Assembly: GCA_963823335.1 (NCBI GenBank)
Contig: CAWGLD010000007.1
Location: 256,001 to 320,000, forward strand
DNA from: an uncultured delta proteobacterium
GTDB lineage: Bacteria > Desulfobacterota > Desulfobacteria > Desulfobacterales > B30-G6
Direction of reading: 5' to 3'
Length of the DNA: 64,000 bases
The translations under genes were made by a program, and so were the position numbers. The notes under the pieces are model-generated. The model saw only the letters and a list, made by a program, of their open reading frames with translations. It had not been told where the DNA came from and made no database searches. This document shows positions 3,343 through 63,865 of the stretch, piece after piece; the first letter of the stretch is position 1, and each line of letters begins with the position of its first letter.

Positions 3343-3664
3343 ACGCAGAAAGCATCCACGTACAAAAATCCACTGTCGTGTCTTTTTCGAATGTAGCGAT
3401 GCGCATGGCCAAGAGGTCTCACAGGACATGGGCGTGGCCCTCGACATCAGCGAAAAGGGCATGCTCCTCGAAACCAGCGTCCCCATTCACGCCTCCACCA
3501 TCAAGGTGATGCTGCCGGTCAAAGAAAAAGATGTCATGGAAGTCATGGGAAATATCATATATTCCATACCCATGCCTGACAACCGCTACCACAACGGTAT
3601 CATATTCCATGAGGCAGTAGATGACCTGGCCGGGTTGGTTGAAACACTTAGCCGTAGGCAGTAA
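3335..3664 (+). CDS. Stand-alone PilZ-domain protein (c-di-GMP receptor)
   Basis: RxxxR (ERRKHPR) and DxSxxG (DISEKG) motifs; ATG at 3335 overlaps the sirtuin stop. Confidence 0.85.
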   Translation: MIERRKHPRTKIHCRVFFECSDAHGQEVSQDMGVALDISEKGMLLETSVPIHASTIKVMLPVKEKDVMEVMGNIIYSIPMPDNRYHNGIIFHEAVDDLAGLVETLSRRQ

Positions 3665-3706
3665 GCCGTAAACCGCTTAGCGCTTACGGCTTATTGCTTA
3701 CCGCTT
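3648..3706. repeat. Inverted heptamer microrepeat (TAAGCNN/NNGCTTA) at convergent gene ends
   Basis: ttagccgtaggcagtaagccgtaaaccgcttagcgcttacggcttattgcttaccgctt; contains both convergent stop codons. Confidence 0.8.
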
Positions 3707-6190: not shown

Positions 6191-6249
6191 AGCAATAAGC
6201 AGTAAGCTCTATGCTTTAAGCCGCTTATAGCTTAAAGCTATGCCTATGC
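6191..6249. repeat. Inverted heptamer microrepeat (TAAGC/GCTTA)
   Basis: agcaataagcagtaagctctatgctttaagccgcttatagcttaaagctatgcctatgc. Confidence 0.75.
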
Positions 6250-11265: not shown

Positions 11266-11323
11266 TAGCTGTAAGCTTTAAGCGGTAAGCAGCTTATTGC
11301 TTAAAGCCTAACGCTTACAGCTA
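11266..11323. repeat. Inverted heptamer microrepeat element
   Basis: tagctgtaagctttaagcggtaagc agcttattgcttaaagcctaacgcttacagcta; perfect 11-bp outer arms. Confidence 0.85.
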
Positions 11324-13018: not shown

Positions 13019-13696
13019 CTATATCTCATAGCAACCCTCGACTTCCCCCTGACTCTTGGATGCCAGAAAGTCCGCAATGGTACGATCATAAACCGCCGTA
13101 TGTTCAAAGGCCTTCCGGGCGAGTCGGAAACGAAGGCCCAATGATGTAACGCCGGCGTTTTTCTCCATCTCCGCGATAACCATATCATAATCCCCCGGAT
13201 CAACGACCGATGCTACCCGGATAAAATTTTTTGCCGAAGCCCTGATCATACACGGTCCACCAATATCGATATTTCCTCGAGCCTGTTCCGGGGTCACATC
13301 TTCCCGTGAAATGGTTTCCTTGAACGGGTAGAGATTCACCACCACCATATCGATGGGCACACTGTTTGTCCTGGAGAGATCCCCCTTGTGAGCGTCATTG
13401 TAGGTCTCGGTCAGGAGCCCGAGGTATATTTTGAAATCCAGGGTCTTCACGAGCCCACCCTGGGTCTCGGGTTGGCCGGTGTATTCGGACACCTGTTTCA
13501 AACAGGCGGACGATTTCTCACCAAGGATCTCTGTGAGCCTCTGATAGGTTCCGCCGGTGGAAAAAAACTGAATCTCCGGGTTGATCTGTATCAGCCGGGG
13601 AACGAAAGTGTCCAGCCCCTGCTTGTCGGAAACGCTCAAAAGAACATGATTGATCTTAACGGCATCGTCGATTTTTTCTACGACATTGATTCCCAT
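13019..13696 (-). CDS. purH: IMP cyclohydrolase domain (N-terminal MGS-like half of PurH) as a separate gene
   Basis: LLSVSDK, FSTGGT, YTGQPE..GGLVKTL, NLYPF, IDIGGPCMIRASAKN; GAGGAGG RBS. Confidence 0.9.
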   Translation of the reverse strand: MGINVVEKIDDAVKINHVLLSVSDKQGLDTFVPRLIQINPEIQFFSTGGTYQRLTEILGEKSSACLKQVSEYTGQPETQGGLVKTLDFKIYLGLLTETYNDAHKGDLSRTNSVPIDMVVVNLYPFKETISREDVTPEQARGNIDIGGPCMIRASAKNFIRVASVVDPGDYDMVIAEMEKNAGVTSLGLRFRLARKAFEHTAVYDRTIADFLASKSQGEVEGCYEI

Positions 13697-13712
13697 TGTC
13701 AGCCTACCTCCT

Positions 13713-13870
13713 CATTGACACTTCGTGTGACATTTGCACTTCGTGCGTCATTTATCCTTCGGATGTCATTTGCCCTGCGGGCGATATTTGTCCTTCGGAC
13801 GACATTTGCGCTGTGCGCGTCATTTCGCCTGCGGCTGTCATTTGCCCTACGGGCGTAATTCATTGTCGCT
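13713..13870 (-). repeat. Array of eight 18-nt mini-hairpin units (AAATGAC linker, variable 4-bp stem, GNA loop) plus leader AGCGACAATGAATTAC
   Basis: Minus-strand units: gccc-gta-gggc, agcc-gca-ggcg, gcgc-aca-gcgc, gtcc-gaa-ggac, gccc-gca-gggc, atcc-gaa-ggat, gcac-gaa-gtgc, acac-gaa-gtgt. Confidence 0.92.
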
Positions 13871-13942
13871 GAAAGCTCATAGCTTACCTAAAATTTAAAA
13901 CATAAAACGATCTATATGACGCGTAGCAAATGACAATTGTTT

Positions 13943-25033: not shown

Positions 25034-26174
25034 AACCATCCGGATGATTTCCCTGGTAATTGCCGGCGGAGGTACGGGCGGACATTTATTTCCAGGCATT
25101 GCCGTTGCGGAAGAAGTTCTGGCCGCCGACACGCACAGCCATGTATGCTTCATCGGTACTGGGAATCGTTTTGAAACCAGCGTTTTAAGTGCTAAAGGTT
25201 TCGAACAGAAGCACATCCGGGTCCAGAGCCTGAAGGGGAAAACCATCCTCCAGCAGATCAAGGCCCTGGCTTTCCTTCCCTGGAGTATTTTGGCGGCAAT
25301 ATGGTTACTCAAGAAACCCCGTCCGGATGTCGTGCTGGGTGTGGGAGGATATTCTGCCGGTCCTGTGGTAATCGCTGCCTGGATTCTGCGCATTCCCAGA
25401 GCGCTTCACGAGCAGAATGTGATTCCCGGTATGACCAACCGTATGCTCTCATATTTTGCAGACCGGATTTATGTGTCCTTTGCGGGCACCCGAATCAAAG
25501 CGCCGGCAAATAAAATCCATCTGACAGGGAATCCTGTGAGAAAAGAAATACTGTCCTGCTTGAAAAGCACCCCCCCCGCCACAAGAGCTTCCGTGACCCC
25601 TGACAAGCCCTTCACCGTCTTCATCGTCGGTGGGAGCCAGGGAGCGCACCGTATCAACACGGCTGTCATGGCGGCCCTGTCACACATCACGTCTAAGGAC
25701 AGGATCGTCTTCATCCATCAGACAGGCGCTGCGGATGAAGATCTTGTTAGAGAAGCATACCGTCGGCACAAAATTACCGGAACAGCAAAAACCTTCTTTC
25801 ATCACATGGAAAAGCATTATCGAAAAGCAGATCTGGTAATCTGCAGAGCCGGGGCATCGACCATCGCCGAGCTGACGGTGCTGGGGAAAAGCGTTATCTT
25901 CGTTCCCTATCCATTTGCAGCCGATGACCACCAGGCCCTCAATGCCCGCCAACTCGTTTCCGTGGGAGCGGCGGAGCTGATCCTTGAAAAAGACCTGAGC
26001 GGAGAGCTTCTGGCCAAAAAAATCGAGCACTATGCATCGTCGCCGGATAAACTCGCCATCATGGCCGCCAACATGCGAAAACAGGCCCAGCCGGATGCGG
26101 CCAGAGCTATCGCGCAGGATTTATACGAACTCGCAGCTTCGAAGGAAAAAGCGGTGAGTGGTGTTAGGTTTTAG
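25020..26174 (+). CDS. murG: Undecaprenyl-PP-MurNAc-pentapeptide GlcNAc transferase
   Basis: GGGTGGHLFP, GGY, HEQN, GNPVR, GGSQGA, RAGASTIAE. Confidence 0.96.
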   Translation: MLQNRTIRMISLVIAGGGTGGHLFPGIAVAEEVLAADTHSHVCFIGTGNRFETSVLSAKGFEQKHIRVQSLKGKTILQQIKALAFLPWSILAAIWLLKKPRPDVVLGVGGYSAGPVVIAAWILRIPRALHEQNVIPGMTNRMLSYFADRIYVSFAGTRIKAPANKIHLTGNPVRKEILSCLKSTPPATRASVTPDKPFTVFIVGGSQGAHRINTAVMAALSHITSKDRIVFIHQTGAADEDLVREAYRRHKITGTAKTFFHHMEKHYRKADLVICRAGASTIAELTVLGKSVIFVPYPFAADDHQALNARQLVSVGAAELILEKDLSGELLAKKIEHYASSPDKLAIMAANMRKQAQPDAARAIAQDLYELAASKEKAVSGVRF

Positions 26175-26272
26175 GTTGGCTTACAGCCAAGAGCGACAAT
26201 AAATGACGCGCGTAGCGCAAATGACGTCCGCAGGACGAATATAGCCCGAAGGGCAAATGACATCTGAAATAA
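26162..26272 (+). repeat. Second GNA mini-hairpin array (3 intact plus 1 degenerate unit) with leader and heptamers
   Basis: ttaggttttaggtt...agcgacaat aaatgac gcgc-gta-gcgc aaatgac gtcc-gca-ggac gaatata gccc-gaa-gggc aaatgac atct-gaa. Confidence 0.9.
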
Positions 26273-26338
26273 TGGATGAACTGAAATTATAACAAGCAAC
26301 TAAACATCGTTCGGCAAAACGAGGAAACAGGCAAGTAA

Positions 26339-44969: not shown

Positions 44970-45566
44970 TTAACTTGAGGGTTGAATTGTTCTCTCGTTA
45001 AATCGATTCATACCTTCCCTTGTGCCTTCACAAAGGATTGTTACAGCAGCATCCCGAGAACGCGTCACAATCTGTTCCAACAGGTTTGCTTCATCGGGTC
45101 GGAACCGCCCTAAAACATGGCCGGTGACATTGCTTTCATTCTCGGAACGACCGATACCCACACGAAGACGGATGAAATTTCCGTCTCCCAGCGTATCGAT
45201 AATAGACCTCACTCCATTGTGCCCTCCGTGCCCTCCTTTCACTTTTATTTTAATTCTGCCATAAACAAGATCAATATCGTCATGAATGACCAACATGTTC
45301 CTGTGTTCTATGCCAAAGTACTCAATTATCCGGTAAATGGGAATGCCACTCCTGTTCATATAGGACTGGGGCTTGATAAGAACGACTTCCCTGCCCTTTA
45401 CAGAGCCCCGTCCATAAAACGCATCGAATTTTTGTCTGTCAATCGGGATCGCATATTCCGACGACAGGGCGTCAGTTACAAGGAAACCCACATTGTGTCG
45501 GGTTCCACGATATTTGTCGCCGGGATTGCCCAACCCTGCGACAACATGTAGTGTCCTGTCAGACAT
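44970..45566 (-). CDS. pth: Peptidyl-tRNA hydrolase
   Basis: [29 protein letters not shown]. Confidence 0.97.
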
Positions 45567-46220
45567 TTATTCAGCACTGTCAGGCTCGACCTCGCCCTCA
45601 ACGGCTTCCTCTTCGCCCTCTCCTTCTTCTTCTTCCTCTACGACTTCTTCTTCTTCAGCTTTCGGGCTCAGGACCGTCACGATCGTGAAATTGGATTCGT
45701 CAACCAGTTCAAACGAGTCATCGATGGACACTTCATCCATGTGTTTCGAGTCTCCGATGCCCATATCGGTCACATCGACTTCAATCGACTCGGGAATGTT
45801 GTTCGGATAACAGAAGACTTCCACTTCATGCCGAACCAGTTGAAGCACACCACCCTCCTCGACGCCTATTGACTGGCCAATGGCCACAACCGGAATGCTG
45901 ATTTTGATCTTTTGATCCATGGTTACTTCATAAAAGTCCACATGCAGCAAGCTGCCGGAAACCGGTTGGGTCTGCAACTCCTTGATCATGGCCGTCCTTG
46001 ATGTCTGCTTTCCGTTCTGAATCAGCAGATTGAGCAGTACCTGTCCGATACCGGATGTCTTCAGAATGTTCTCGAGCTCTTTTGATATTACCGAGAGCAT
46101 CACCGGTTCTGCCTTGGGTCCATAGAGTATGGCAGGAATCATGCCTTCCCGTCGGAGTTCTCTTGCGGCGCCGTTTCCCACTTTATTTCGTACCGTTACC
46201 TTCAATTCAATCTTTTCCAA
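45567..46220 (-). CDS. rplY: 50S ribosomal protein L25 / general stress protein Ctc
   Basis: LRREGMIPAILYG, HVDF, acidic tail; TTG start with GGAGG RBS. Confidence 0.95.
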   Translation of the reverse strand: MEKIELKVTVRNKVGNGAARELRREGMIPAILYGPKAEPVMLSVISKELENILKTSGIGQVLLNLLIQNGKQTSRTAMIKELQTQPVSGSLLHVDFYEVTMDQKIKISIPVVAIGQSIGVEEGGVLQLVRHEVEVFCYPNNIPESIEVDVTDMGIGDSKHMDEVSIDDSFELVDESNFTIVTVLSPKAEEEEVVEEEEEGEGEEEAVEGEVEPDSAE

Positions 46221-46308
46221 AAAATATCCTCCTTTTAGCCCGCAACCAAACAGGCGGGTAATCTTTCGTCATAAAAGCGACAACGTCGCGCTAAATAAAT
46301 TCGCAAAG

Positions 46309-46360
46309 TGAACCGAAACAGCGAGCGCATTCCCCGTAGCTTGCTGCGAGGTTCTTCAAT
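46309..46360. repeat. Interspersed palindromic element, copy 1 (AGCGAGCGCA...GCTTGCTGC...TCTTCAAT)
   Basis: Shared with 58411-58484 and 63723-63865. Confidence 0.8.
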
Positions 46361-46364
46361 TTAT

Positions 46365-47303
46365 TTATACAAACAAAGATGTTACGGAATCGCCTGTGAA
46401 GCTCCGTATAATTGCTTCCCCCACGATTTCAGAAATAGTCAATATTTTCAATTTGTCGCAGCTTCCCGCTTTGTCACTCAATGGAATCGTGTCCGTCGCG
46501 ACGAGACTCTTGAGCGATGATGCATTGATCCTTTCTATTGCCGGACCGGAAAGCACCGGATGGGCGCAACATGCGTGAACTTCCTGGGCGCCCTCGCGGG
46601 TGAGCGCTTCGGCCGCCTGTGTCAACGTGCCGGCCGTATCCACCATGTCATCCAGGATAATCGCTACCTTGTTCTTTACATTTCCGATCACTGCCATGGC
46701 CTTGGCCACGTTGGGTGCTGAACGTCTTTTGTCGATTATGGCAAGGTCGGCCGCCAGGCGTTTTGCAAATGCCCTGGCCCTCTCGACACCCCCGGCATCC
46801 GGGGAGACAACCACCAGGTTGCCATTGAAATTTTCTCTGATATAGTCGATCAATACGGGGGCAGCAAAAAGATTGTCCACGGGAATGTTAAAGAATCCCT
46901 GAATCTGCCCGGCATGCAAGTCCATCGTAATCACTCTGCTCGCACCGGCGGTTTCGATGAGATCCGCCACGAGTTTGGCACTGATGGGTACACGGGGAGC
47001 GACCTTCTTGTCCTGCCGTGCATACCCGAAGTAAGGAATAACCGCACCGATTCGAAGCGCCGACGACCGCTTCAGTGCATCCAGCATCATCAGCAACTCC
47101 ATCAGATTGTCATTAACCGGGCGGCACGTGGATTGAACGACATAGACGGTCTTACCGCGCACGTTCTCGTCGATCTCGACCTGCACTTCGCCATCACTGA
47201 ACGTGGCGACTTTCGCACCACCCAATGGCAACCGAAGATAGTCACAAATCTGTTTTGCCAGTACCGGATTCGAATTGCCCGAAAAAATCAGAGGACCTGT
47301 CAT
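46365..47303 (-). CDS. prs: Ribose-phosphate pyrophosphokinase
   Basis: [40 protein letters not shown]. Confidence 0.98.
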
Positions 47304-47372
47304 GACGCTCCTGGAATCTGAGTTCTCGATACATGTCTCAATATTTTACTTCTCTCTCACAATAGCGGTTCA

Positions 47373-47447
47373 TGGCTGGGGCGGGAGGATTCGAACCTCC
47401 GAATGCAGGAACCAAAGTCCTGTGTCTTACCGCTTGACGACGCCCCA
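47373..47447 (-). tRNA. tRNA-Gln (anticodon TTG)
   Basis: TGGGGCGTCGTCAAGCGGTAAGACACAGGAC-TTTGG-TTCCTGCATTCGGAGGTTCGAATCCTCCCGCCCCAGCCA; cloverleaf, encoded CCA, classic ispE-tRNAGln-prs synteny. Confidence 0.97.
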
Positions 47448-47465
47448 TCATGATCTTTAACAGGT

Positions 47466-48335
47466 TCAAATCAACGTCTCAGCCATAAACAGCCGCCACC
47501 GGTGATGTGCTGACAACAGTTCACACGCACGCCTGGCTTTGCGTGAATCCGAATAAATTCCGAAGACCGCCGGACCACTGCCAGACATCAATGCTACATC
47601 GGCCCCCGCCTGGAGAAGTTGCCTTTTTATATCCGATATTAAAGGATATTCTGAAATTGTCACCGTCTCGAGATCGTTACACGAATAGTGTTTGAAATCG
47701 AATGTCGATTTGTCAGAAAAGAAATTTTTAAGTTTTTTTCCACAATTTGTCAATCCCAAATTCAGTTTTTTATACACGGCCGCCGTTGAAACAGGAATAT
47801 CAGGGCAGGCCACAACAATCGGCAAAACCTGCAGTCCATCATAAATCTCGAGACACTCCCCGATACCGGTTGCCACAGCCGGTTTTTGCTGAAGAAAAAA
47901 AGGTACGTCAGCACCGATGGAAAGCCCCATACGGTTCATTTCCGCTGTCGAAAAAGGCATCCCATGATATTGATTGAGATGCAACAGCGTCCGACCCGCA
48001 TTGCTGCTCCCGCCACCCAGACCCGCAGCCACAGGTATGTGCTTCTCTATGAATATGGATACACCCCCATGACCCCCAGGTTCCGGGTGATCTTGGTGCA
48101 CCATCGACAATCTATTGTAAAACAGGCTTGCAGCCTTGAATGCCAGGTTACCCTCATTGTCCGGCACCCCTGGATTGTCACATCGAACAGAAATCCCCGG
48201 TGTTTCAAAATTGAATGTCATTACATCATACAGACTGATGTGACTCATGAGGGTCACGAGTTCATGATACCCGTCAGGCCGTTTGCCCGTGACCTGAAGA
48301 AACAAATTAATTTTAGCGGGTGAGAGAATCTTCAT
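47466..48335 (-). CDS. ispE: 4-diphosphocytidyl-2-C-methyl-D-erythritol kinase
   Basis: PAKINLFL, DGYHEL, IPVAAGLGGGSS, GADVPFF, MSGSG. Confidence 0.96.
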   Translation of the reverse strand: MKILSPAKINLFLQVTGKRPDGYHELVTLMSHISLYDVMTFNFETPGISVRCDNPGVPDNEGNLAFKAASLFYNRLSMVHQDHPEPGGHGGVSIFIEKHIPVAAGLGGGSSNAGRTLLHLNQYHGMPFSTAEMNRMGLSIGADVPFFLQQKPAVATGIGECLEIYDGLQVLPIVVACPDIPVSTAAVYKKLNLGLTNCGKKLKNFFSDKSTFDFKHYSCNDLETVTISEYPLISDIKRQLLQAGADVALMSGSGPAVFGIYSDSRKARRACELLSAHHRWRLFMAETLI

Positions 48336-48380
48336 TTACCGGTCAAAAATCGTTTTACCTAAATTGAGCGATTGTCGAGG

Positions 48381-48797
48381 TTATCGACGTTCCTTTACAT
48401 AAAGCATTCTCAGTTCATACAGCATGGTTTTAAGCATATTGGCCTCGTCATCCGACAAATTCCCCTTGGTCTTTTCTTCCATCATTCCCAGTATGTCGAT
48501 GGTCTGTTTGGCCAATGGCAAATTCCTTGCCTTTTGGTTCGTCGCTGGGTCTTCGATAACACCCAGATTTACGAGGGCAGATGAATTGAGCGAGAAAATA
48601 AAGGTCGGAAAATTGATTTCCGGTAAGCGGTAGTCTTCATTGGCGGTGGCCTTTTCAAATTCCTTAGCTTTTTCTGCTGCTTTTTCTGGGCCTTCATTTT
48701 CAACGGTCTCAGTCTCTTTCGTTGTTTCATCTTCCGGGGTATCTCCGGAAAACAATCTTTTGTCCTTGACCACAAAGTCTTTTTTCTCGTCTGGCAT
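48381..48797 (-). CDS. DUF1844-like protein
   Basis: LPEINFPTFIFSL...ALVNLG...AKQTIDILGM..EKTKGNL. Confidence 0.8.
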   Translation of the reverse strand: MPDEKKDFVVKDKRLFSGDTPEDETTKETETVENEGPEKAAEKAKEFEKATANEDYRLPEINFPTFIFSLNSSALVNLGVIEDPATNQKARNLPLAKQTIDILGMMEEKTKGNLSDDEANMLKTMLYELRMLYVKERR

Positions 48798-48813
48798 TTT
48801 TTTCTCCTATAGA

Positions 48814-48975
48814 GCCCTGTGGGGGTCACGTTGCCTTCGGCTGTCATTTGCCTTTCAGGCGTCATTTACACTTCGTGTGACATTACGCCCTTCGGGCGTG
48901 ATTTATTGCCGCTTATAGCTGATAGTTTTCAGCTGTAAACAAACCTAAAACGTAACACATAAAACCTAAAACCTC
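48814..48975 (-). repeat. Third GNA mini-hairpin array (5 units) with leader and AGGTTTT heptamers
   Basis: Minus strand: aggttttaggtttt...agcggcaataaatcac gccc-gaa-gggc, acac-gaa-gtgt, gcct-gaa-aggc, agcc-gaa-ggca, cccc-aca-gggc. Confidence 0.9.
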
Positions 48976-48976
48976 A

Positions 48977-50557
48977 TCAAAACTCGAGTGGGACAATACT
49001 TTTTACCGAACCCAGGCCATTCAATACTGCCAGGGTCGTATCATCAATCCTGGTATCGGTCTGCATGAAAATGATATTGTGATCCCCGCCCTCTTCCTGG
49101 CCTACCTGCATTCTGCCGATATTGATTCCATGATCTCCCAGTGTCGTACCGATTTCACCGATGGAACCGGGACGGTCAATATTATAGATCAATGCCATAT
49201 GCCCCTGGGGTATAAGTTCGAGCCTGAAATTGTTGATCTTGATTATCCGCGGGTCCTTTTTGCCGAAAATCGTTCCCGAAACACTGTTGGCCATCTCGGT
49301 CGTCAGGACATGAACTGTCAAGAGATTGGCATAGTCTTTTGATTCGGCCGTGCTGGTTTCCGTGATCTTGATTCCCATCTCTTTGGCCAACGCCCGGGCG
49401 TTGATGAAATTCACCTCGTCAGTCACCATAGGCGTCATCAATCCTTTCATGACCGAGGTCGAGACCGGGGTCAGATCGACCTTTTGGAAATCACCGTCAT
49501 AGGCGATGGTGACCTCCTTCACGGGTCCTTTGATCAACTGCGTCTGAAGAGATCCCATCTTCTCACCTAATTCCAGAAGCGGACCTATTTTCTCCAGCAA
49601 CTCGCCTGTTACCGACGGAACATTGACGGCGTTGACAATGGTACCTGTTTTTAGAAATGCAATAATCTGTTCGGCTACCGATACAGCCACATTGGTCTGA
49701 GCTTCACGGGTGGACGCACCCAGATGAGGTGTACAAATCACCCTGTCGAGTCCAAAAAGCGGGTTTTCACCCGGTGGTTCGGTAGCAAATACATCCAGGG
49801 CGGCCCCGGCGACCTTCCCGCTGACAATGGCCGCATGCAGGTCCGACTCGTTCACGATACCACCCCGGGCGCAGTTGATGATCATGACGCCCTCTTTCAT
49901 CAGACCAAAGGATTTTTTGTCCAGAAAATTGAGGGTACTCTCCATTTTCGGAACATGAACCGAAATATAATCGGACCGCCGATACAGTTCTTCCAGCGCA
50001 ACACTTTCGAACCCCGAAGTTTCAATCTGCTCCGGTGCGATATGCGGATCGTAAACCACCACCTTCATTTTCAATCCACGTGCGCGGTCCGCAACGATAG
50101 ACCCGATCTTTCCAAACCCAATGATCCCTAAAACTTTATTGAATATTTCCCTTCCCTGCAAGCGCTTCTTCTCCCACAAACCCTCTTTCATGGTTGTCGT
50201 ACCCGTGGGGATATTTCGTGACAGTGAAAGCATCATGGCAATGGCATGCTCGGCTGTTGTAACAACATTCCCTTCCGGTGTGTTCATCACCGCGATCCCT
50301 TTTTTGGTGGCCGCGGGTATATCCACATTGTCGAGTCCGATCCCGGCTCTTCCGATAACCTGTAAGTTGGTCGCGGATTCCAACAAGTCTGCCGTCACCC
50401 TGGTCGCGCTCCGGATAACCAGTGCATGATAATCACCGATGATCTCCTTGAGGGCTTCAGGTGCTAGCCCTGTCTTGACATCAACCTCGATGCCATCAGC
50501 CTCCTGAAACATCTTGACGCCAATGTCACCCAGAACATCGCTTACCAGCACTCTCAT
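48977..50557 (-). CDS. serA: D-3-phosphoglycerate dehydrogenase (long form with ASB/ACT domains)
   Basis: IRSAT, GRAGIGLDNVD, GFGKIG, NCARGG, TPHLGAST; GGAG RBS before MRVLVSD. Confidence 0.96.
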   Translation of the reverse strand: MRVLVSDVLGDIGVKMFQEADGIEVDVKTGLAPEALKEIIGDYHALVIRSATRVTADLLESATNLQVIGRAGIGLDNVDIPAATKKGIAVMNTPEGNVVTTAEHAIAMMLSLSRNIPTGTTTMKEGLWEKKRLQGREIFNKVLGIIGFGKIGSIVADRARGLKMKVVVYDPHIAPEQIETSGFESVALEELYRRSDYISVHVPKMESTLNFLDKKSFGLMKEGVMIINCARGGIVNESDLHAAIVSGKVAGAALDVFATEPPGENPLFGLDRVICTPHLGASTREAQTNVAVSVAEQIIAFLKTGTIVNAVNVPSVTGELLEKIGPLLELGEKMGSLQTQLIKGPVKEVTIAYDGDFQKVDLTPVSTSVMKGLMTPMVTDEVNFINARALAKEMGIKITETSTAESKDYANLLTVHVLTTEMANSVSGTIFGKKDPRIIKINNFRLELIPQGHMALIYNIDRPGSIGEIGTTLGDHGINIGRMQVGQEEGGDHNIIFMQTDTRIDDTTLAVLNGLGSVKSIVPLEF

Positions 50558-50715
50558 GGTATTCTCCTTATTGAATAAATTTGCCATGCAAATTTATGTG
50601 ACGCGACTTTGTCGCTATATTCATACCTGCCATAGGAACAGGGTCTGCGGAACAGTTTTTATAGTATTCGATATTTTTTCTCAAGATTCAACTTAAATAA
50701 AACCGATATACGTTT

Positions 50716-51366
50716 TTATTTCTTGGGTGACATATGGCAGAGAATAGCCGGCATGCAGGTGTCTTCAGACCGTATTGAATACTTATTGATTTGTACATCG
50801 AAATAACGGTGCAACCTGCGCAGGATATCCAATACACTCTGGCGAACACCCGAGGCAATGATGATGCGGCCATTCGGCTTCAGGTAGATGCGGAACAGAT
50901 TCAAAAGGGGGGTGCAATCCCGTTCGTGAAACATTACCTCCGACCCGATGATGGTATCAAATCGGTCTTCGAGATCCGGTCTATGCCAATCAAGTCGACA
51001 TATTCTTATTTCCGGGCAGTGGTTGATTTCAGCATTGGCCGAGGCGAATTGAAGGGCGTTTTCATCATATTCCGTCATGGTGACATCGTGCCCGAATGAA
51101 GCGGCAACAACACCGACAACGCCGATTCCCGATCCGATTTCGAGAACTTTTTTCATTTGGGACGGCGGAGTTCTGGCAACATGTTCGGCCAGAATCCATG
51201 AGGGCTCCCAGATCTTGGCCCACAGAGGAAAACCGCATACAATATTTTCAAAATCAATGAACGGGTCGATCGTTTTGGGGACAACAAAATTGAATTGCCG
51301 ACCATGGATCTTCAGGTCTCTGCTTTCGGTGCTGTAGTTTCGGTAAAAAGAGGCAAGTGTAACCAT
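50716..51366 (-). CDS. Class I SAM-dependent methyltransferase, family-16 / METTL21-like (putative protein lysine methyltransferase)
   Basis: PLWAKIWEPS, VLEIGSGIGVVG, VTMTEY, LDW, FDTIIGSEVMF. Confidence 0.8.
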   Translation of the reverse strand: MVTLASFYRNYSTESRDLKIHGRQFNFVVPKTIDPFIDFENIVCGFPLWAKIWEPSWILAEHVARTPPSQMKKVLEIGSGIGVVGVVAASFGHDVTMTEYDENALQFASANAEINHCPEIRICRLDWHRPDLEDRFDTIIGSEVMFHERDCTPLLNLFRIYLKPNGRIIIASGVRQSVLDILRRLHRYFDVQINKYSIRSEDTCMPAILCHMSPKK

Positions 51367-51372
51367 GTTCAC

Positions 51373-51400
51373 ACTATAGCGGATCCTTCCGACCTGTCAA
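51373..51400 (-). promoter_or_regulatory. Sigma70 promoter of the methyltransferase gene, probably leaderless
   Basis: TTGACA-N16-TATAGT followed after 6 nt by ATG (51366). Confidence 0.6.
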
Positions 51401-51406
51401 GGCAAC

Positions 51407-51444
51407 AAAAAAACACCCGCGCACTGCGTGTGTGCGGGTGTTTT
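51407..51444 (-). terminator. Intrinsic terminator after dnaK
   Basis: aaaaaaacacccgcgcac...gtgtgcgggtgtttt. Confidence 0.85.
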
Positions 51445-51528
51445 AAGTATTTCATTCGAACCCCTGGGTCATCAACCCCTGGAGCCCTTCAGGGGATCGC
51501 CTTTTACTTGAGACGATCCCAAAGTAAA

Positions 51529-53451
51529 TCATTTTGGGTCCTCTTCCTTGACCTCTTCAAAATCAGCATCCACGACATCATCGTCAGCAGCACCGGAAGT
51601 CTGATCTGACCCCTGAGCACCGTCTGCGCCCTGTCCCTGGTCCTTTGAGGCCTGCTGATACATTGCCTCGGCCAGCTTATGGGAGGTCTGCGTCAATTCT
51701 TCACTCAAGCGTTTAATTTCCTCGGCATCCTCGGTTTCCATGGCCGCCTTGAGTGATGCGATGGCTGATTCCACACCCGTTTTGGTGGTATCGTCAACCT
51801 TATCTCCCATCTCCTTGATGGATTTTTCCGTGGAGTAGATCAATGCGTCGGCATGATTCCGGGCATCCACAAGGACCCGCTTCTTCTTGTCGTCTTCGGC
51901 ATGCAATTCGGCATCCTTGATAAGTTTGTCGATCTCTTCCTTGGAGAGACCGCTGGAGGCCGTGATCTGTATGGATTGCTCCTTGCCCGTAGCCTGATCT
52001 TTGGCGGAAACATTCACAATACCATTCGCATCGATATCAAAGGCCACTTCGATCTGTGGAATGCCCCGAGGTGCCGGAGGAATCCCCACCAGTTCAAATC
52101 GTCCCAGGGTTTTATTCCCCGCCGCCATTTCACGTTCACCCTGCATGACATGAATGGACACTGCCGGCTGGCTGTCAGCCGCTGTAGAAAATATTTGGCT
52201 TTTCTTGGTCGGAATCGTGGTATTCTTTTCGATAAGCCGGGTCATGACACCGCCGAGGGTTTCAATTCCCAGCGAAAGGGGGGTCACGTCCAGCAGCAGC
52301 ACATCCTTGACATCCCCTTTGAGCACACCACCTTGAATGGCAGCGCCGATGGCAACCACTTCATCAGGATTCACACCCTTGTGGGGATCCTTACCAAATA
52401 ATTTCTTTACACGATCCTGTACCGCCGGCATCCGGGTCATACCACCCACTAAAATGACCTCGTCGACTTCCTGAGCTGACAGGTTGGCATCTTTCAGAGC
52501 TGTCCGGCAGGGTCCTTCCAGCTTGTTGAGCAGATCGGCGATGAGTGCCTCCAGCTTCGCCCGGGTAATCTTGATATTGAGATGTTTGGGACCACTGGCA
52601 TCTGCCGTGATAAAGGGCAGGTTGACATCCGTTTCCAGAGATGTCGACAATTCCATTTTCGCCTTTTCCGCCGCTTCCTTGAGTCGTTGGAGCGCCATTT
52701 TGTCGTTTCGGATATCGATACCCTGATCTTTTTTGAATTCGTTGGCAAGATGGTCGATGATGCGTAAGTCAAAATCTTCACCACCCAGATGGGTATCCCC
52801 GTTGGTGGATTTCACTTCGAAGACACCTTCACCGATTTCCAGAATCGAAACGTCGAATGTGCCACCACCCAGATCAAAAACAGCGATTTTTTCTTCTTTT
52901 CGTTTGTCCAGTCCATATGCGAGGGATGCTGCCGTGGGCTCATTGATAATTCTCAAAACATTGAGACCCGCTATCTTTCCAGCGTCCTTGGTCTCCTGGC
53001 GCTGGCTGTCATTGAAGTATGCAGGGACCGTAACCACAGCATCGGTAACCGGCTCACCCAGGTACTCTTCGGCTGTTTTTTTGATGTTGGCCAGTATGTA
53101 GGATGAAACTTCCGCCGGGCTGACAAGCTTGCCCCTCAGATTGATGCGGACACCGCCGTCGCTGGACTGCTCGATTTTGTATGGAAGTATCTTCATGTCA
53201 CTCTGGATTTCGGGTGAACTAAATTTCCGCCCAATCAGCCGTTTCACGGCAAAAATCGTATTTTCAGGATTGGTAATCGCCTGACGCTTTGCAATCTGTC
53301 CCACCAACCTTTCATTGCTCTCTGAAACAGCGACAATCGATGGTGTCGTCCGGCCACCTTCCTGGTTCGTGATCACTTTGGCTTCGCCACCTTCCATCAC
53401 CGCCACACAGGAGTTGGTGGTTCCGAGATCAATACCGATTATTTTTCCCAT
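51529..53451 (-). CDS. dnaK: Chaperone DnaK (Hsp70)
   Basis: [32 protein letters not shown]-terminal DADFEEV. Confidence 0.99.
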
Positions 53452-54405: not shown

Positions 54406-54653
54406 GGTTGTGCACCCTCTGTTGTGTTATTTCAAAGCTCCCTGGCCTGTTATTGATCGAGATCGATCCACGACACAGAACCCATCACTTATCGCTGCTT
54501 CCTTCCGGACCTGACGAGGTTCGTGAGTGTCTGTTGCGTAGCGTCCGATCAAACAAAACCTGGGAATTCCAAAAATACCCTAAAGAGGGAGTTCAGCCCC
54601 GCATAAGCGGATTTCGGGACGAGGGCACCGCTAGCTCCCCGCCTAGCACAACC
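54406..54653 (-). ncRNA. ffs: Large (Alu-domain) bacterial signal recognition particle RNA
   Basis: Helix-8 core GAACCTCGTCAGGTCCGGAAGGAAGCAGCG; 5' Alu-like GTGCTAGGCGGGGAGCTAGCGGTGCCC; terminal helix GGTTGTGC/GCACAACC; ~248 nt. Confidence 0.93.
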
Positions 54654-58367: not shown

Positions 58368-58410
58368 TGCCGCCATCCTATTTTCGGAATATTATTATGA
58401 CAAGCGGTAT

Positions 58411-58484
58411 AAACCACAACAGCGAGCGCATTCCCCGTGGGTTCTGCCTGCGGCAGTGCTTCACATGCTGCGAGACTCTTCAAT
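58411..58484. repeat. Interspersed palindromic element, copy 2, with an inserted hairpin cassette
   Basis: acagcgagcgcattccccgt-[ggttctgcctgcggcagtgcttcaca]-tgctgcgagactcttcaat. Confidence 0.75.
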
Positions 58485-59429: not shown

Positions 59430-59470
59430 TTAAGCTGTAAGCAATAAGCGATCAACCGCTTACAGCTTAA
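59430..59470. repeat. Inverted heptamer microrepeat element
   Basis: ttaagctgtaagcaataagcg...ccgcttacagcttaa; perfect 13-bp outer arms. Confidence 0.85.
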
Positions 59471-63722: not shown

Positions 63723-63865
63723 TGAACCGCAACAGCGAGCGCAAACTCCGCAGATTGCCTCAGGGTTAGCGAGCAAATCTGGATTAGACAGAGTTTCTTA
63801 CGGTCGCTGCGAAGCACTGCCACACGGCAGAACTTTCCTTGCAGCTTGCTGCAAGGTTCTTCGAT
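63723..63865. repeat. Interspersed palindromic element, copy 3 (long form)
   Basis: gaaccgcaacagcgagcgca ... gcagcttgctgcaaggttcttcgat. Confidence 0.75.

Follow-up and report, generated by a model that had tools for sequence, protein, structure and literature searches.

Dispersed repeats between bacterial genes are usually credited to a DNA transposase, as in the REP/RAYT systems, or left unexplained, as for heptamer repeats and intervening sequences (IVS). The mycobacterial interspersed repetitive units (MIRU) are tandem direct repeats that occupy the intercistronic spacers of operons and are oriented with transcription; their units of 40 to 100 bp carry small ORFs that overlap neighbouring stop and start codons, and they are not known to have hairpin units or an associated gene. 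The STRR sequences of heterocystous cyanobacteria are heptamer repeats, tandem and intergenic. The REP, BIME and REPIN/RAYT systems of Enterobacteria and Pseudomonas comprise dispersed extragenic palindromic units in tens to hundreds of copies, often clustered (the accessible part of PMC3333891, otherwise general background). In the 23S rRNA IVS of Coxiella, Leptospira, Salmonella and other bacteria, inverted repeats pair around an S23p ORF of the PF05635 family; the accessible part of PMC4990558 has such S23p-type IVS excised by RNase III, and that of PMC10053308 describes a resemblance of PF05635 to the Avd protein of diversity-generating retroelements. DNA mini-hairpins of the form d(GCGNAGC), as covered in the accessible part of PMC13037366, follow a C-GNA-G loop rule, occur as single hairpins at phage and plasmid origins, and have melting temperatures in the order A > G > C > T for N.

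Here we describe an array of short hairpins between serA and a DUF1844 gene in a 64,000-nucleotide stretch of DNA from an uncultured member of the Desulfobacterales (the window; G000:C7:256001-320000, where G000 is the source genome, a 4.37-Mb assembly in 11 contigs). The original prediction had read the minus strand of this spacer as a stop codon followed by AGGTTTT heptamers, AGCT-type heptamers, a leader, five hairpin units, a ribosome-binding site (RBS) and an ATG, and both this layout and its coordinates are correct (Table 1). It had also claimed, rightly, that all three arrays of the window share the layout and carry their GNA loops on the sense strand between co-directional genes; GGAGGGTT words stand upstream of the array between the HD-domain and purH-like genes. 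The serA-DUF1844 spacer is 179 nt long. Its AGGTTTT heptamers have a period of 7 and 4.9 copies at 48941-48974 (TRF), and its AGCT-NNN heptamers correspond to the element centre in two-armed copies elsewhere. Each of the five units consists of a 7- to 8-nt AAATGAC-type spacer word and an 11-nt hairpin; the hairpins are, in order, GCCCGAAGGGC, ACACGAAGTGT, GCCTGAAAGGC, AGCCGAAGGCA and CCCCACAGGGC, with stems GCCC, ACAC, GCCT, AGCC and CCCC and with GAA loops in the first four and an ACA loop in the fifth. Only 5 nt separate the last hairpin from AGGAG. The spacer matched no Rfam family at E up to 1, a promoter and terminator scan of its sense strand was empty, and its sole terminator-like site is on the antisense strand. 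An open reading frame running through the units from the ATG in the spacer word was also considered; inspected by eye, this frame is closed in the serA/DUF1844 array.

Table 1. Features of the serA-DUF1844 spacer and the other hairpin arrays of the window (window coordinates)
Feature	Position	Strand	Basis
serA (D-3-phosphoglycerate dehydrogenase)	48977..50587	-	ORF; Pfam 2-Hacid_dh_C, PGDH_inter, ACT
serA TGA stop codon	48979-48977	-	ORF call
AGGTTTT-type heptamers, directly 3' of serA stop	48976-48935	-	sequence
AGCT-NNN heptamer words	48914..48934	-	sequence; alignment of 29 leaders
Leader AGCGGCAATAAATCAC	48898..48913	-	sequence, leader alignment, covariance model R1
Five hairpin units, period ~18 nt	48814..48897	-	sequence; repeat family D1
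AGGAG RBS of DUF1844 gene and ATG	AGGAG 48808-48804, ATG 48797 (48795..48808)	-	sequence
DUF1844 gene	48381..48797	-	ORF; Pfam PF08899
Second array, 8-9 units, between HD-domain gene and purH-like gene	13678-13899	-	sequence, Pfam
Third array, 3 units, between murG and murC in cell-wall gene cluster	26163-26294	+	sequence, Pfam

The serA/DUF1844 array belongs to a lineage-specific intergenic repeat family with about 60 members in each genome. Array loci were located in the source genome with a profile of the leader (nhmmer, E up to 0.01) and with chains of units; 8 chain-only false positives were dropped from 69 first-pass loci, and the midpoints of all 61 loci retained fall between called genes. 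Chains of at least four units numbered 33, versus 0 in a reversed-sequence null, and a 29-nt two-unit pattern gave 10 matches, versus 0 in a backwards control. In each unit, the 7-nt word [AT]AATG[AT]C precedes an 11-nt hairpin whose 4-bp stem is capped by a C-GNA-G loop. Among 192 units, the loops include GAA (99), GCA (48), GTA (17), AAA (11) and GGA (2), and in 166 of them a G-N-A loop is closed by C-G, in agreement with the d(C-GNA-G) mini-hairpin rule. The stem vocabulary is small, with about eight recurring members (GCGC, GCCC, GTCC, GCAC, AGCC, ATCC, GCCT and ACAC). Stems covary and are almost all Watson-Crick, pairing being kept through changes on both sides. Mismatches in the same 192 units comprise 15 G:T and 12 A:C, so that there is no G:T excess and the usual signature of selection on a one-strand RNA fold is therefore missing. 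We also considered a CRISPR array. CRISPR arrays have constant repeats of 25 to 40 nt, unique spacers between them, and cas genes, whereas these units recur every 18 nt, share 7 constant nucleotides and otherwise vary among about eight recurring stems; this candidate was rejected.

The exact two-unit pattern was found in 7 of the 9 other genomes of the genus and in none of 31 others, and a search of approximately 185,000 species returned eight assemblies, all of them uncultured Desulfobacterales metagenome-assembled genomes. The picture of a repeat confined to one genus, drawn from the exact pattern, was corrected by a covariance model (R1) built solely from gene-less arrays: every one of the family's 15 genomes, which span three genera, contains matches to it, from 6 to at least 156 per genome. 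A generic pattern (four C-GNA-G hairpins at 18-nt spacing) applied to 401 genomes of the phylum gave 17 matches in the source genome and none in the control; outside the source genome it picked up ordinary 18-nt tandem repeats, roughly as often as the backwards control did, and it is too loose to be informative. The same search surfaced an array in another family of the same order (G302:C1:4255353-4255501), in which identical 18-nt units, made of GAGGCGAAGCCTC and a 5-nt spacer and each comprising a hairpin of 5 bp and a GAA loop, are repeated in tandem. No description of such arrays, or of PF05635 cassettes outside rRNA, appeared in the literature searched (subscription journals lay outside its coverage).

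We asked whether the orientation of the arrays follows transcription or replication. Genes were called with a simple codon-usage scorer (3413 genes, 80% of the genome), a crude procedure that is the main technical caveat to the counts that follow. The GC skew is clean and switches near position 1.0 Mb on contig C1. Between co-directional genes, which flank 50 of the 61 arrays, 42 arrays are sense and 8 antisense (binomial p 1.2e-6); the remainder lie between divergent (6) or convergent (5) genes. The ratio of sense to antisense is 21:4 for leading-strand genes and likewise 21:4 for lagging-strand genes, and the leading strand carries 29 of the 61 arrays (p 0.8) versus 56% of all called genes. 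Because the split is equal in the two classes and the arrays are so divided between the strands, their orientation is independent of replichore. The original prediction that orientation follows transcription rather than replication is thereby borne out genome-wide. Its description of the polarity as fixed is too strong, since flanking genes with good scores support at least five of the antisense arrays, and neither selection nor mechanism can therefore be absolute. Two of the eight antisense calls are merely the short inverted arm of a sense array.

A similar bias is seen in related genomes, where 46 loci examined with 600-nt flanks comprise 23 sense, 3 antisense, 3 convergent and 17 unscorable cases; the 23:3 split (p ~9e-5) comes from loci that are partly orthologous to one another and to those of the source genome and are thus not independent. 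Among the 20 PF05635 genes of the source genome, 12 are sense between co-directional genes and 2 antisense (p ~0.013), with 3 between divergent genes, 2 between convergent genes and 1 at a contig edge. Divided by word type, orientation genome-wide is 24:4 for GGAGGGTT octamers and 26:5 for the hairpin leader, while TAAGCnG/GCTTAnn heptamer arrays are unbiased (30:33). Polarity is common to three sets, namely PF05635 genes, arrays of the G-rich GGAGGGTT word, and hairpin arrays. Action on mRNA, action on the non-template strand, and transcription-coupled insertion are all possible explanations compatible with these data.

Unit order proved to be more constrained than it appears at a single locus. 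The original prediction had called the order shuffled and had taken units to be added as modules; the first of these claims fails, and the second does not hold as it was put. Genome-wide, succession is strongly non-random, with recurrent steps GCGC>GTCC (28), GTCC>GCAC (15), AGCC>GCGC (10) and GCCC>AGCC (9); the order GCGC>GTCC>GCAC recurs, and the first unit is GCGC in 35 and GCCC in 12 of the 61 arrays. The concentration of transitions lies above that of all 2000 shuffles. Identical neighbouring units occur 3 times where 24.5 are expected (minimum 11 in 2000 shuffles). It follows that arrays descend from multi-unit templates and that simple one-unit slippage is rare or else not tolerated.

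Orthologous loci show how arrays change. All six genomes examined have an array in the serA/DUF1844 spacer; it comprises 1 unit in G001, 3 in G007, 5 in the source genome, 7 in G004, 9 in G005 and approximately 11 in G002. Most of the arrays with several units share their first and their last two units and differ in between, by the gain or loss of whole internal units. Judged from the sequences of these copies, the seemingly odd order in the source genome is a deletion derivative of a G004-like order. In the murG-murC spacer, the array has 3 units in the source genome, about 5 in G004, and at least 18, in sense direction, in G007; the G004 and G007 arrays end directly before the murC start. 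The corresponding spacers of G001, G009 and G012 have no array and contain other word repeats instead. Essential operons such as murG-murC tolerate from 1 to at least 18 units, and the units may therefore have practical uses as neutral or insulating spacers. In G007, the murG-murC spacer (L107) is a three-unit higher-order repeat with a period of approximately 53 nt, and another three-unit higher-order repeat, with a 54-nt period, forms an array of more than 700 nt at G007:C3:242220-242950.

A search of the source genome for PF05635 returned 20 matches, 19 of which are flanked by other words. The remaining copy (C1:744972-745094, minus strand) is frameshifted and is bracketed by an inverted pair of hairpin arrays; it lies between an aminotransferase-like and an epimerase-like gene (names by eye). 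Its arms carry the array spacer words AAATTAC, AAATATC, TAATGAC and GAATGAC with GNA hairpins, together with the array leader AACAATAAATAAC and, on the opposite side, its complement CATTCATTGT. The orthologous cassette ORF is intact (106-148 aa) in G002, G004, G007 and G009, truncated in G005 and a remnant in G008. In the same orthologous-locus comparison the gene was not found in G001 or in G006, an assembly that is 83% complete. Two genomes of another genus have an intact ORF with hairpin-word arms at the same locus, and the G004 protein (P0001) matches PF05635 clearly, at 83 bits. The window's genus has four intact copies, in which the ORF ends in ...AAC AAT AAA TGA C or ...AAA TAA C, with its stop inside the leader or first spacer word. 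What serves as leader in the dispersed arrays is thus, in the cassette, the word containing the final codons and stop of the gene. In the other genus, the stop lies approximately 45 nt before the arm.

Model R1 matches both arms of these cassettes (E 3e-7 to 1e-5) in opposite orientation, pointing away from the gene, with matches at the 3' end of the ORF; it has no match on three paralogous cassettes. The cassette RNA (L074:1290-1850, minus strand) is predicted to enclose the ORF in a long stem formed by its two arms (z -6.3). A short inverted left arm of 2-4 words survives in about 16 of the 61 gene-less copies. Left arms contain the 7-mers GCGAAGC and ACGAAGT on the complementary strand, and in some copies the left arm and the central AGCT heptamers form a 12-bp inverted repeat, GTCATTTATTGT / ACAATAAATGAC. 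MITEs are marked by terminal inverted repeats together with a target-site duplication; the inverted repeat seen here is an inner one. Homology between the dispersed arrays and the arms of the PF05635 cassette is, in our view, well supported, and the serA/DUF1844 array looks like a gene-less arm of a small cassette carrying a four-helix-bundle gene. Stems are 5 bp long in the cassette arms, where the period is 16-20 nt, unlike the 18-nt units of the dispersed copies, which makes the latter a sister lineage rather than direct copies. We infer that arrays derive from cassettes and not the reverse. Array number has no clean relation to the state of the gene in the counts of R1 matches, which are 99 in the source genome (gene frameshifted), 133 in G005 (truncated), 23 in G009 (intact) and 32 in G006 (none found). 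Most of the PF05635 genes read in the source genome are bracketed by inverted arrays of a short word of their own, among them GGATTCCA, GGAGGGTT, GTGAGAC, GGGATC, GTTGGGTT, CGAACAT and others; example matches are at C2:127769, C7:178049, C6:205292 and C4:116996.

By analogy, the system appears to work most like a REPIN/RAYT partnership, with one vertically kept gene, its own flanking repeats and many gene-less copies. As with REP sequences, the units are extragenic, palindromic and highly repeated (61 loci, 192 units), and a single-copy vertical gene is flanked by cognate repeats while gene-less copies occupy presumably transcribed spacers. Unlike REPINs, which are inverted doublets, the units are 11-nt hairpins arranged head to tail with an 18-nt period, the only inversion being that of the short left arm; the gene, moreover, belongs to the four-helix-bundle family PF05635 and does not encode a Y1 transposase. 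We considered a link to RAYT, a Y1 (HUH) transposase whose gene is flanked by the repeats it recognises, and rejected it. The source genome has eight matches to the Y1 (IS200-like) transposase domain PF01797, and no real array adjoins any of them; the one array called near such a gene was a false positive inside its coding sequence. At the PF01797 locus that was read (L064, G000:C2:73009-76332), a long ORF is bracketed by an inverted GGGGACGTTCC motif, which may represent a REP/RAYT-like system separate from the hairpin units.

The likeness to 23S rRNA IVS belongs mainly to the cassette. Its terminal inverted repeats are predicted to pair around a PF05635 ORF in a long stem, as they do in the IVS; the element lies sense, presumably inside a host transcript; and the ORF is prone to decay (G000, G005, G008). 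The serA/DUF1844 array has no ORF. Unlike the IVS, cassette and arrays are found between protein genes rather than in a 23S rRNA helix, the cassette arms are arrays of hairpin words, and there are many gene-less, mostly one-armed copies. With MIRU, the arrays share tandem repetition in operon spacers and orientation with transcription, and with STRR they share the tandem heptamers (AGGTTTT, AGCTNNN and TAAGCNG words) that stand beside them, although the taxa and the words are different and the hairpin units themselves are not heptamers. The C-GNA-G loop rule of the d(GCGNAGC) mini-hairpins is kept, and the exact GCGAAGC sequence is present in left arms; here the units are arranged in genomic tandem arrays, and GGA is almost absent.

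The two strands of the arrays differ in composition. The GNA strand is 59% purine (A 33%, T 16%) and has 0.071 YC dinucleotides per nucleotide, compared with 0.102 on the opposite strand and 0.103 in ordinary sense spacers. In both word families, hairpin and GGAGGGTT, the sense strand is the purine-rich reading, while the antisense reading of the hairpin arrays places GUCAUUU after each GC hairpin. Predicted RNA folding of the serA/DUF1844 spacer does not favour the sense strand (z -2.25 for sense, -5.0 for antisense). Eighteen metatranscriptome runs contain parts of window positions 45000-53000, and four of them were compared with it as assembled contigs, in pieces of 276-993 nt. Among the pieces listed for these four libraries, whose contigs are short, no RNA contig bridges the serA/DUF1844 array; one, at 48938-49932, breaks off at the AGCT words, which is how an assembler would be expected to behave at a repeat.

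We consider it probable, taking the account as a whole, that the arrays are gene-less arms of cassettes embedded in the sense direction in host transcripts. Cassettes and gene-less arrays would both sit inside host transcription units in that direction, and the arrays would be copied into mRNA between the stop codon of the upstream gene and the RBS of the downstream one, where the purine-rich arm would fold into a string of small local hairpins. Most copies, that between serA and the DUF1844 gene included, are gene-less and keep mainly one arm. Polarity would then have two likely sources. The parent element is itself embedded sense and probably depends on read-through transcription, and selection probably acts within operons against the pyrimidine-rich reading, in which GUCAUUU comes after a GC hairpin. 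In such a case, the terminator-like or Rho-prone reading would be removed from operons and the purine-rich arm would persist, harmless or mildly useful. The arrays are presumably transcribed, and in our preferred account selection, rather than the mechanism of insertion, would set their polarity.

Several of the same observations could be read as the mark of a cis-acting mRNA element recruited by the host, whose polarity reflects its function in protecting the 5' end of the downstream cistron, in blocking 3'-exonucleases or Rho loading within the untranslated spacer, or in shielding the RBS from sequence upstream. Arrays do end near an RBS or start codon (serA/DUF1844; murC in G004 and G007), the serA/DUF1844 array is kept in six genomes, and the near absence of adjacent units with the same stem (3 versus 24.5 expected) favours local folding. 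GGA loops are scarce (2 of 192) despite d(GCGGAGC) being the second most stable DNA form, and a C-GGA-G loop would create a GGAG whose distance to the AUG in the spacer word is 5 nt. Both the scarcity of GGA loops and the avoidance of identical neighbouring stems hint at selection on RNA. However, the spread in unit number, 1 to about 11 in the serA/DUF1844 spacer and 0 to at least 18 between murG and murC, looks like drift and not like tuning, arrays are missing from the murG-murC spacer of three genomes (G001, G009, G012), the downstream genes are unrelated housekeeping genes, and GGA loops are present in the cassette arms of the other genus. Stems without wobble asymmetry, the better predicted folding of the antisense strand and the absence of a bridging RNA contig among the pieces listed speak against a purely RNA-level reading, and we regard recruitment of the arrays for any of these mRNA roles as unlikely. 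A different extension of the gene-less-arm account is that the four-helix-bundle gene and its arms are partners in a novel type of REPIN/RAYT-like system, in which one copy of the gene is inherited vertically, dozens of gene-less arrays are spread or maintained via the transcript, and the protein acts on GNA-hairpin RNA or on the displaced non-template strand. If true, such an activity would explain the sense embedding of cassettes and arrays alike; we offer it tentatively, as a speculation with rather low odds of being right.

At the level of DNA, the C-GNA-G units could act as hyperstable mini-hairpins on the single-stranded non-template strand, either because a hairpin-recognising enzyme copies or inserts units in a transcription-coupled manner or because the DNA structures affect transcription or repair. 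A polarity that follows transcription would fit such a mechanism, as would stems that are near-perfect palindromes with no G:T excess and the canonical GCGAAGC and ACGAAGT 7-mers in the left arms of two-armed copies. IS200/IS605-type single-stranded DNA transposons, however, are biased toward the lagging-strand template, and the arrays show no such bias, 29 of 61 being on the leading strand; furthermore, none of the eight Y1 (HUH) transposase matches adjoins a real array. The loops themselves point both ways, since 166 of 192 obey the d(GCGNAGC) rule and yet their usage (A > C > T >> G) departs from the order of stability (A > G > C > T) given in the accessible part of PMC13037366. On balance, we find a DNA-level origin or action of the arrays quite unlikely. 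That the AAATGAC direct repeats are iteron-like double-stranded binding sites for a regulator or nucleoid protein is very improbable: conservation within the unit is highest in the 7-nt word, which recurs every 18 bp, but this period is out of helical phase, approximately 60 loci lie beside unrelated genes, stem covariation would have no role, and orientation relative to transcription would not be expected.

The repeat family is unusual in combining an orientation that tracks transcription and not replication, a clear unit grammar, and homology to the arms of an IVS-type gene cassette. New here are the genome-wide comparison of transcription with replication as determinants of orientation, the rules of unit succession, the changes seen between orthologous loci, and the tie between the hairpin arrays and one four-helix-bundle cassette lineage. 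The family makes two old questions testable, the function of the S23p/IVS protein and the polarity of some repeats in operons. Were the partnership between gene and arms real, it would provide a function for the widespread and unexplained IVS-protein family.

Other repeats and RNA genes were observed in the window. A repeat of approximately 45 nt (family D7, GAACCG.AACAGCGAGCGCA...) is found on the plus strand at 46309-46353, 58410-58454 and 63723-63767, and it also adjoins several PF05635 cassettes elsewhere in the source genome. In four RNA libraries, contig depth is 9-325 in the bin holding D7 and about 3-5 in the bins next to it, and there are many loose contig ends at its borders. TAAGCnG/GCTTAnn heptamer arrays lie at 2489-2533, 3648-3705, 6196-6239, 11267-11322 and 59433-59470. 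The sole Rfam matches across the window are a large SRP RNA (54408-54651, minus strand) and a tRNA (47376-47447, minus strand); both are depth peaks in the RNA libraries, which thus contain RNA of the host or of a close organism.
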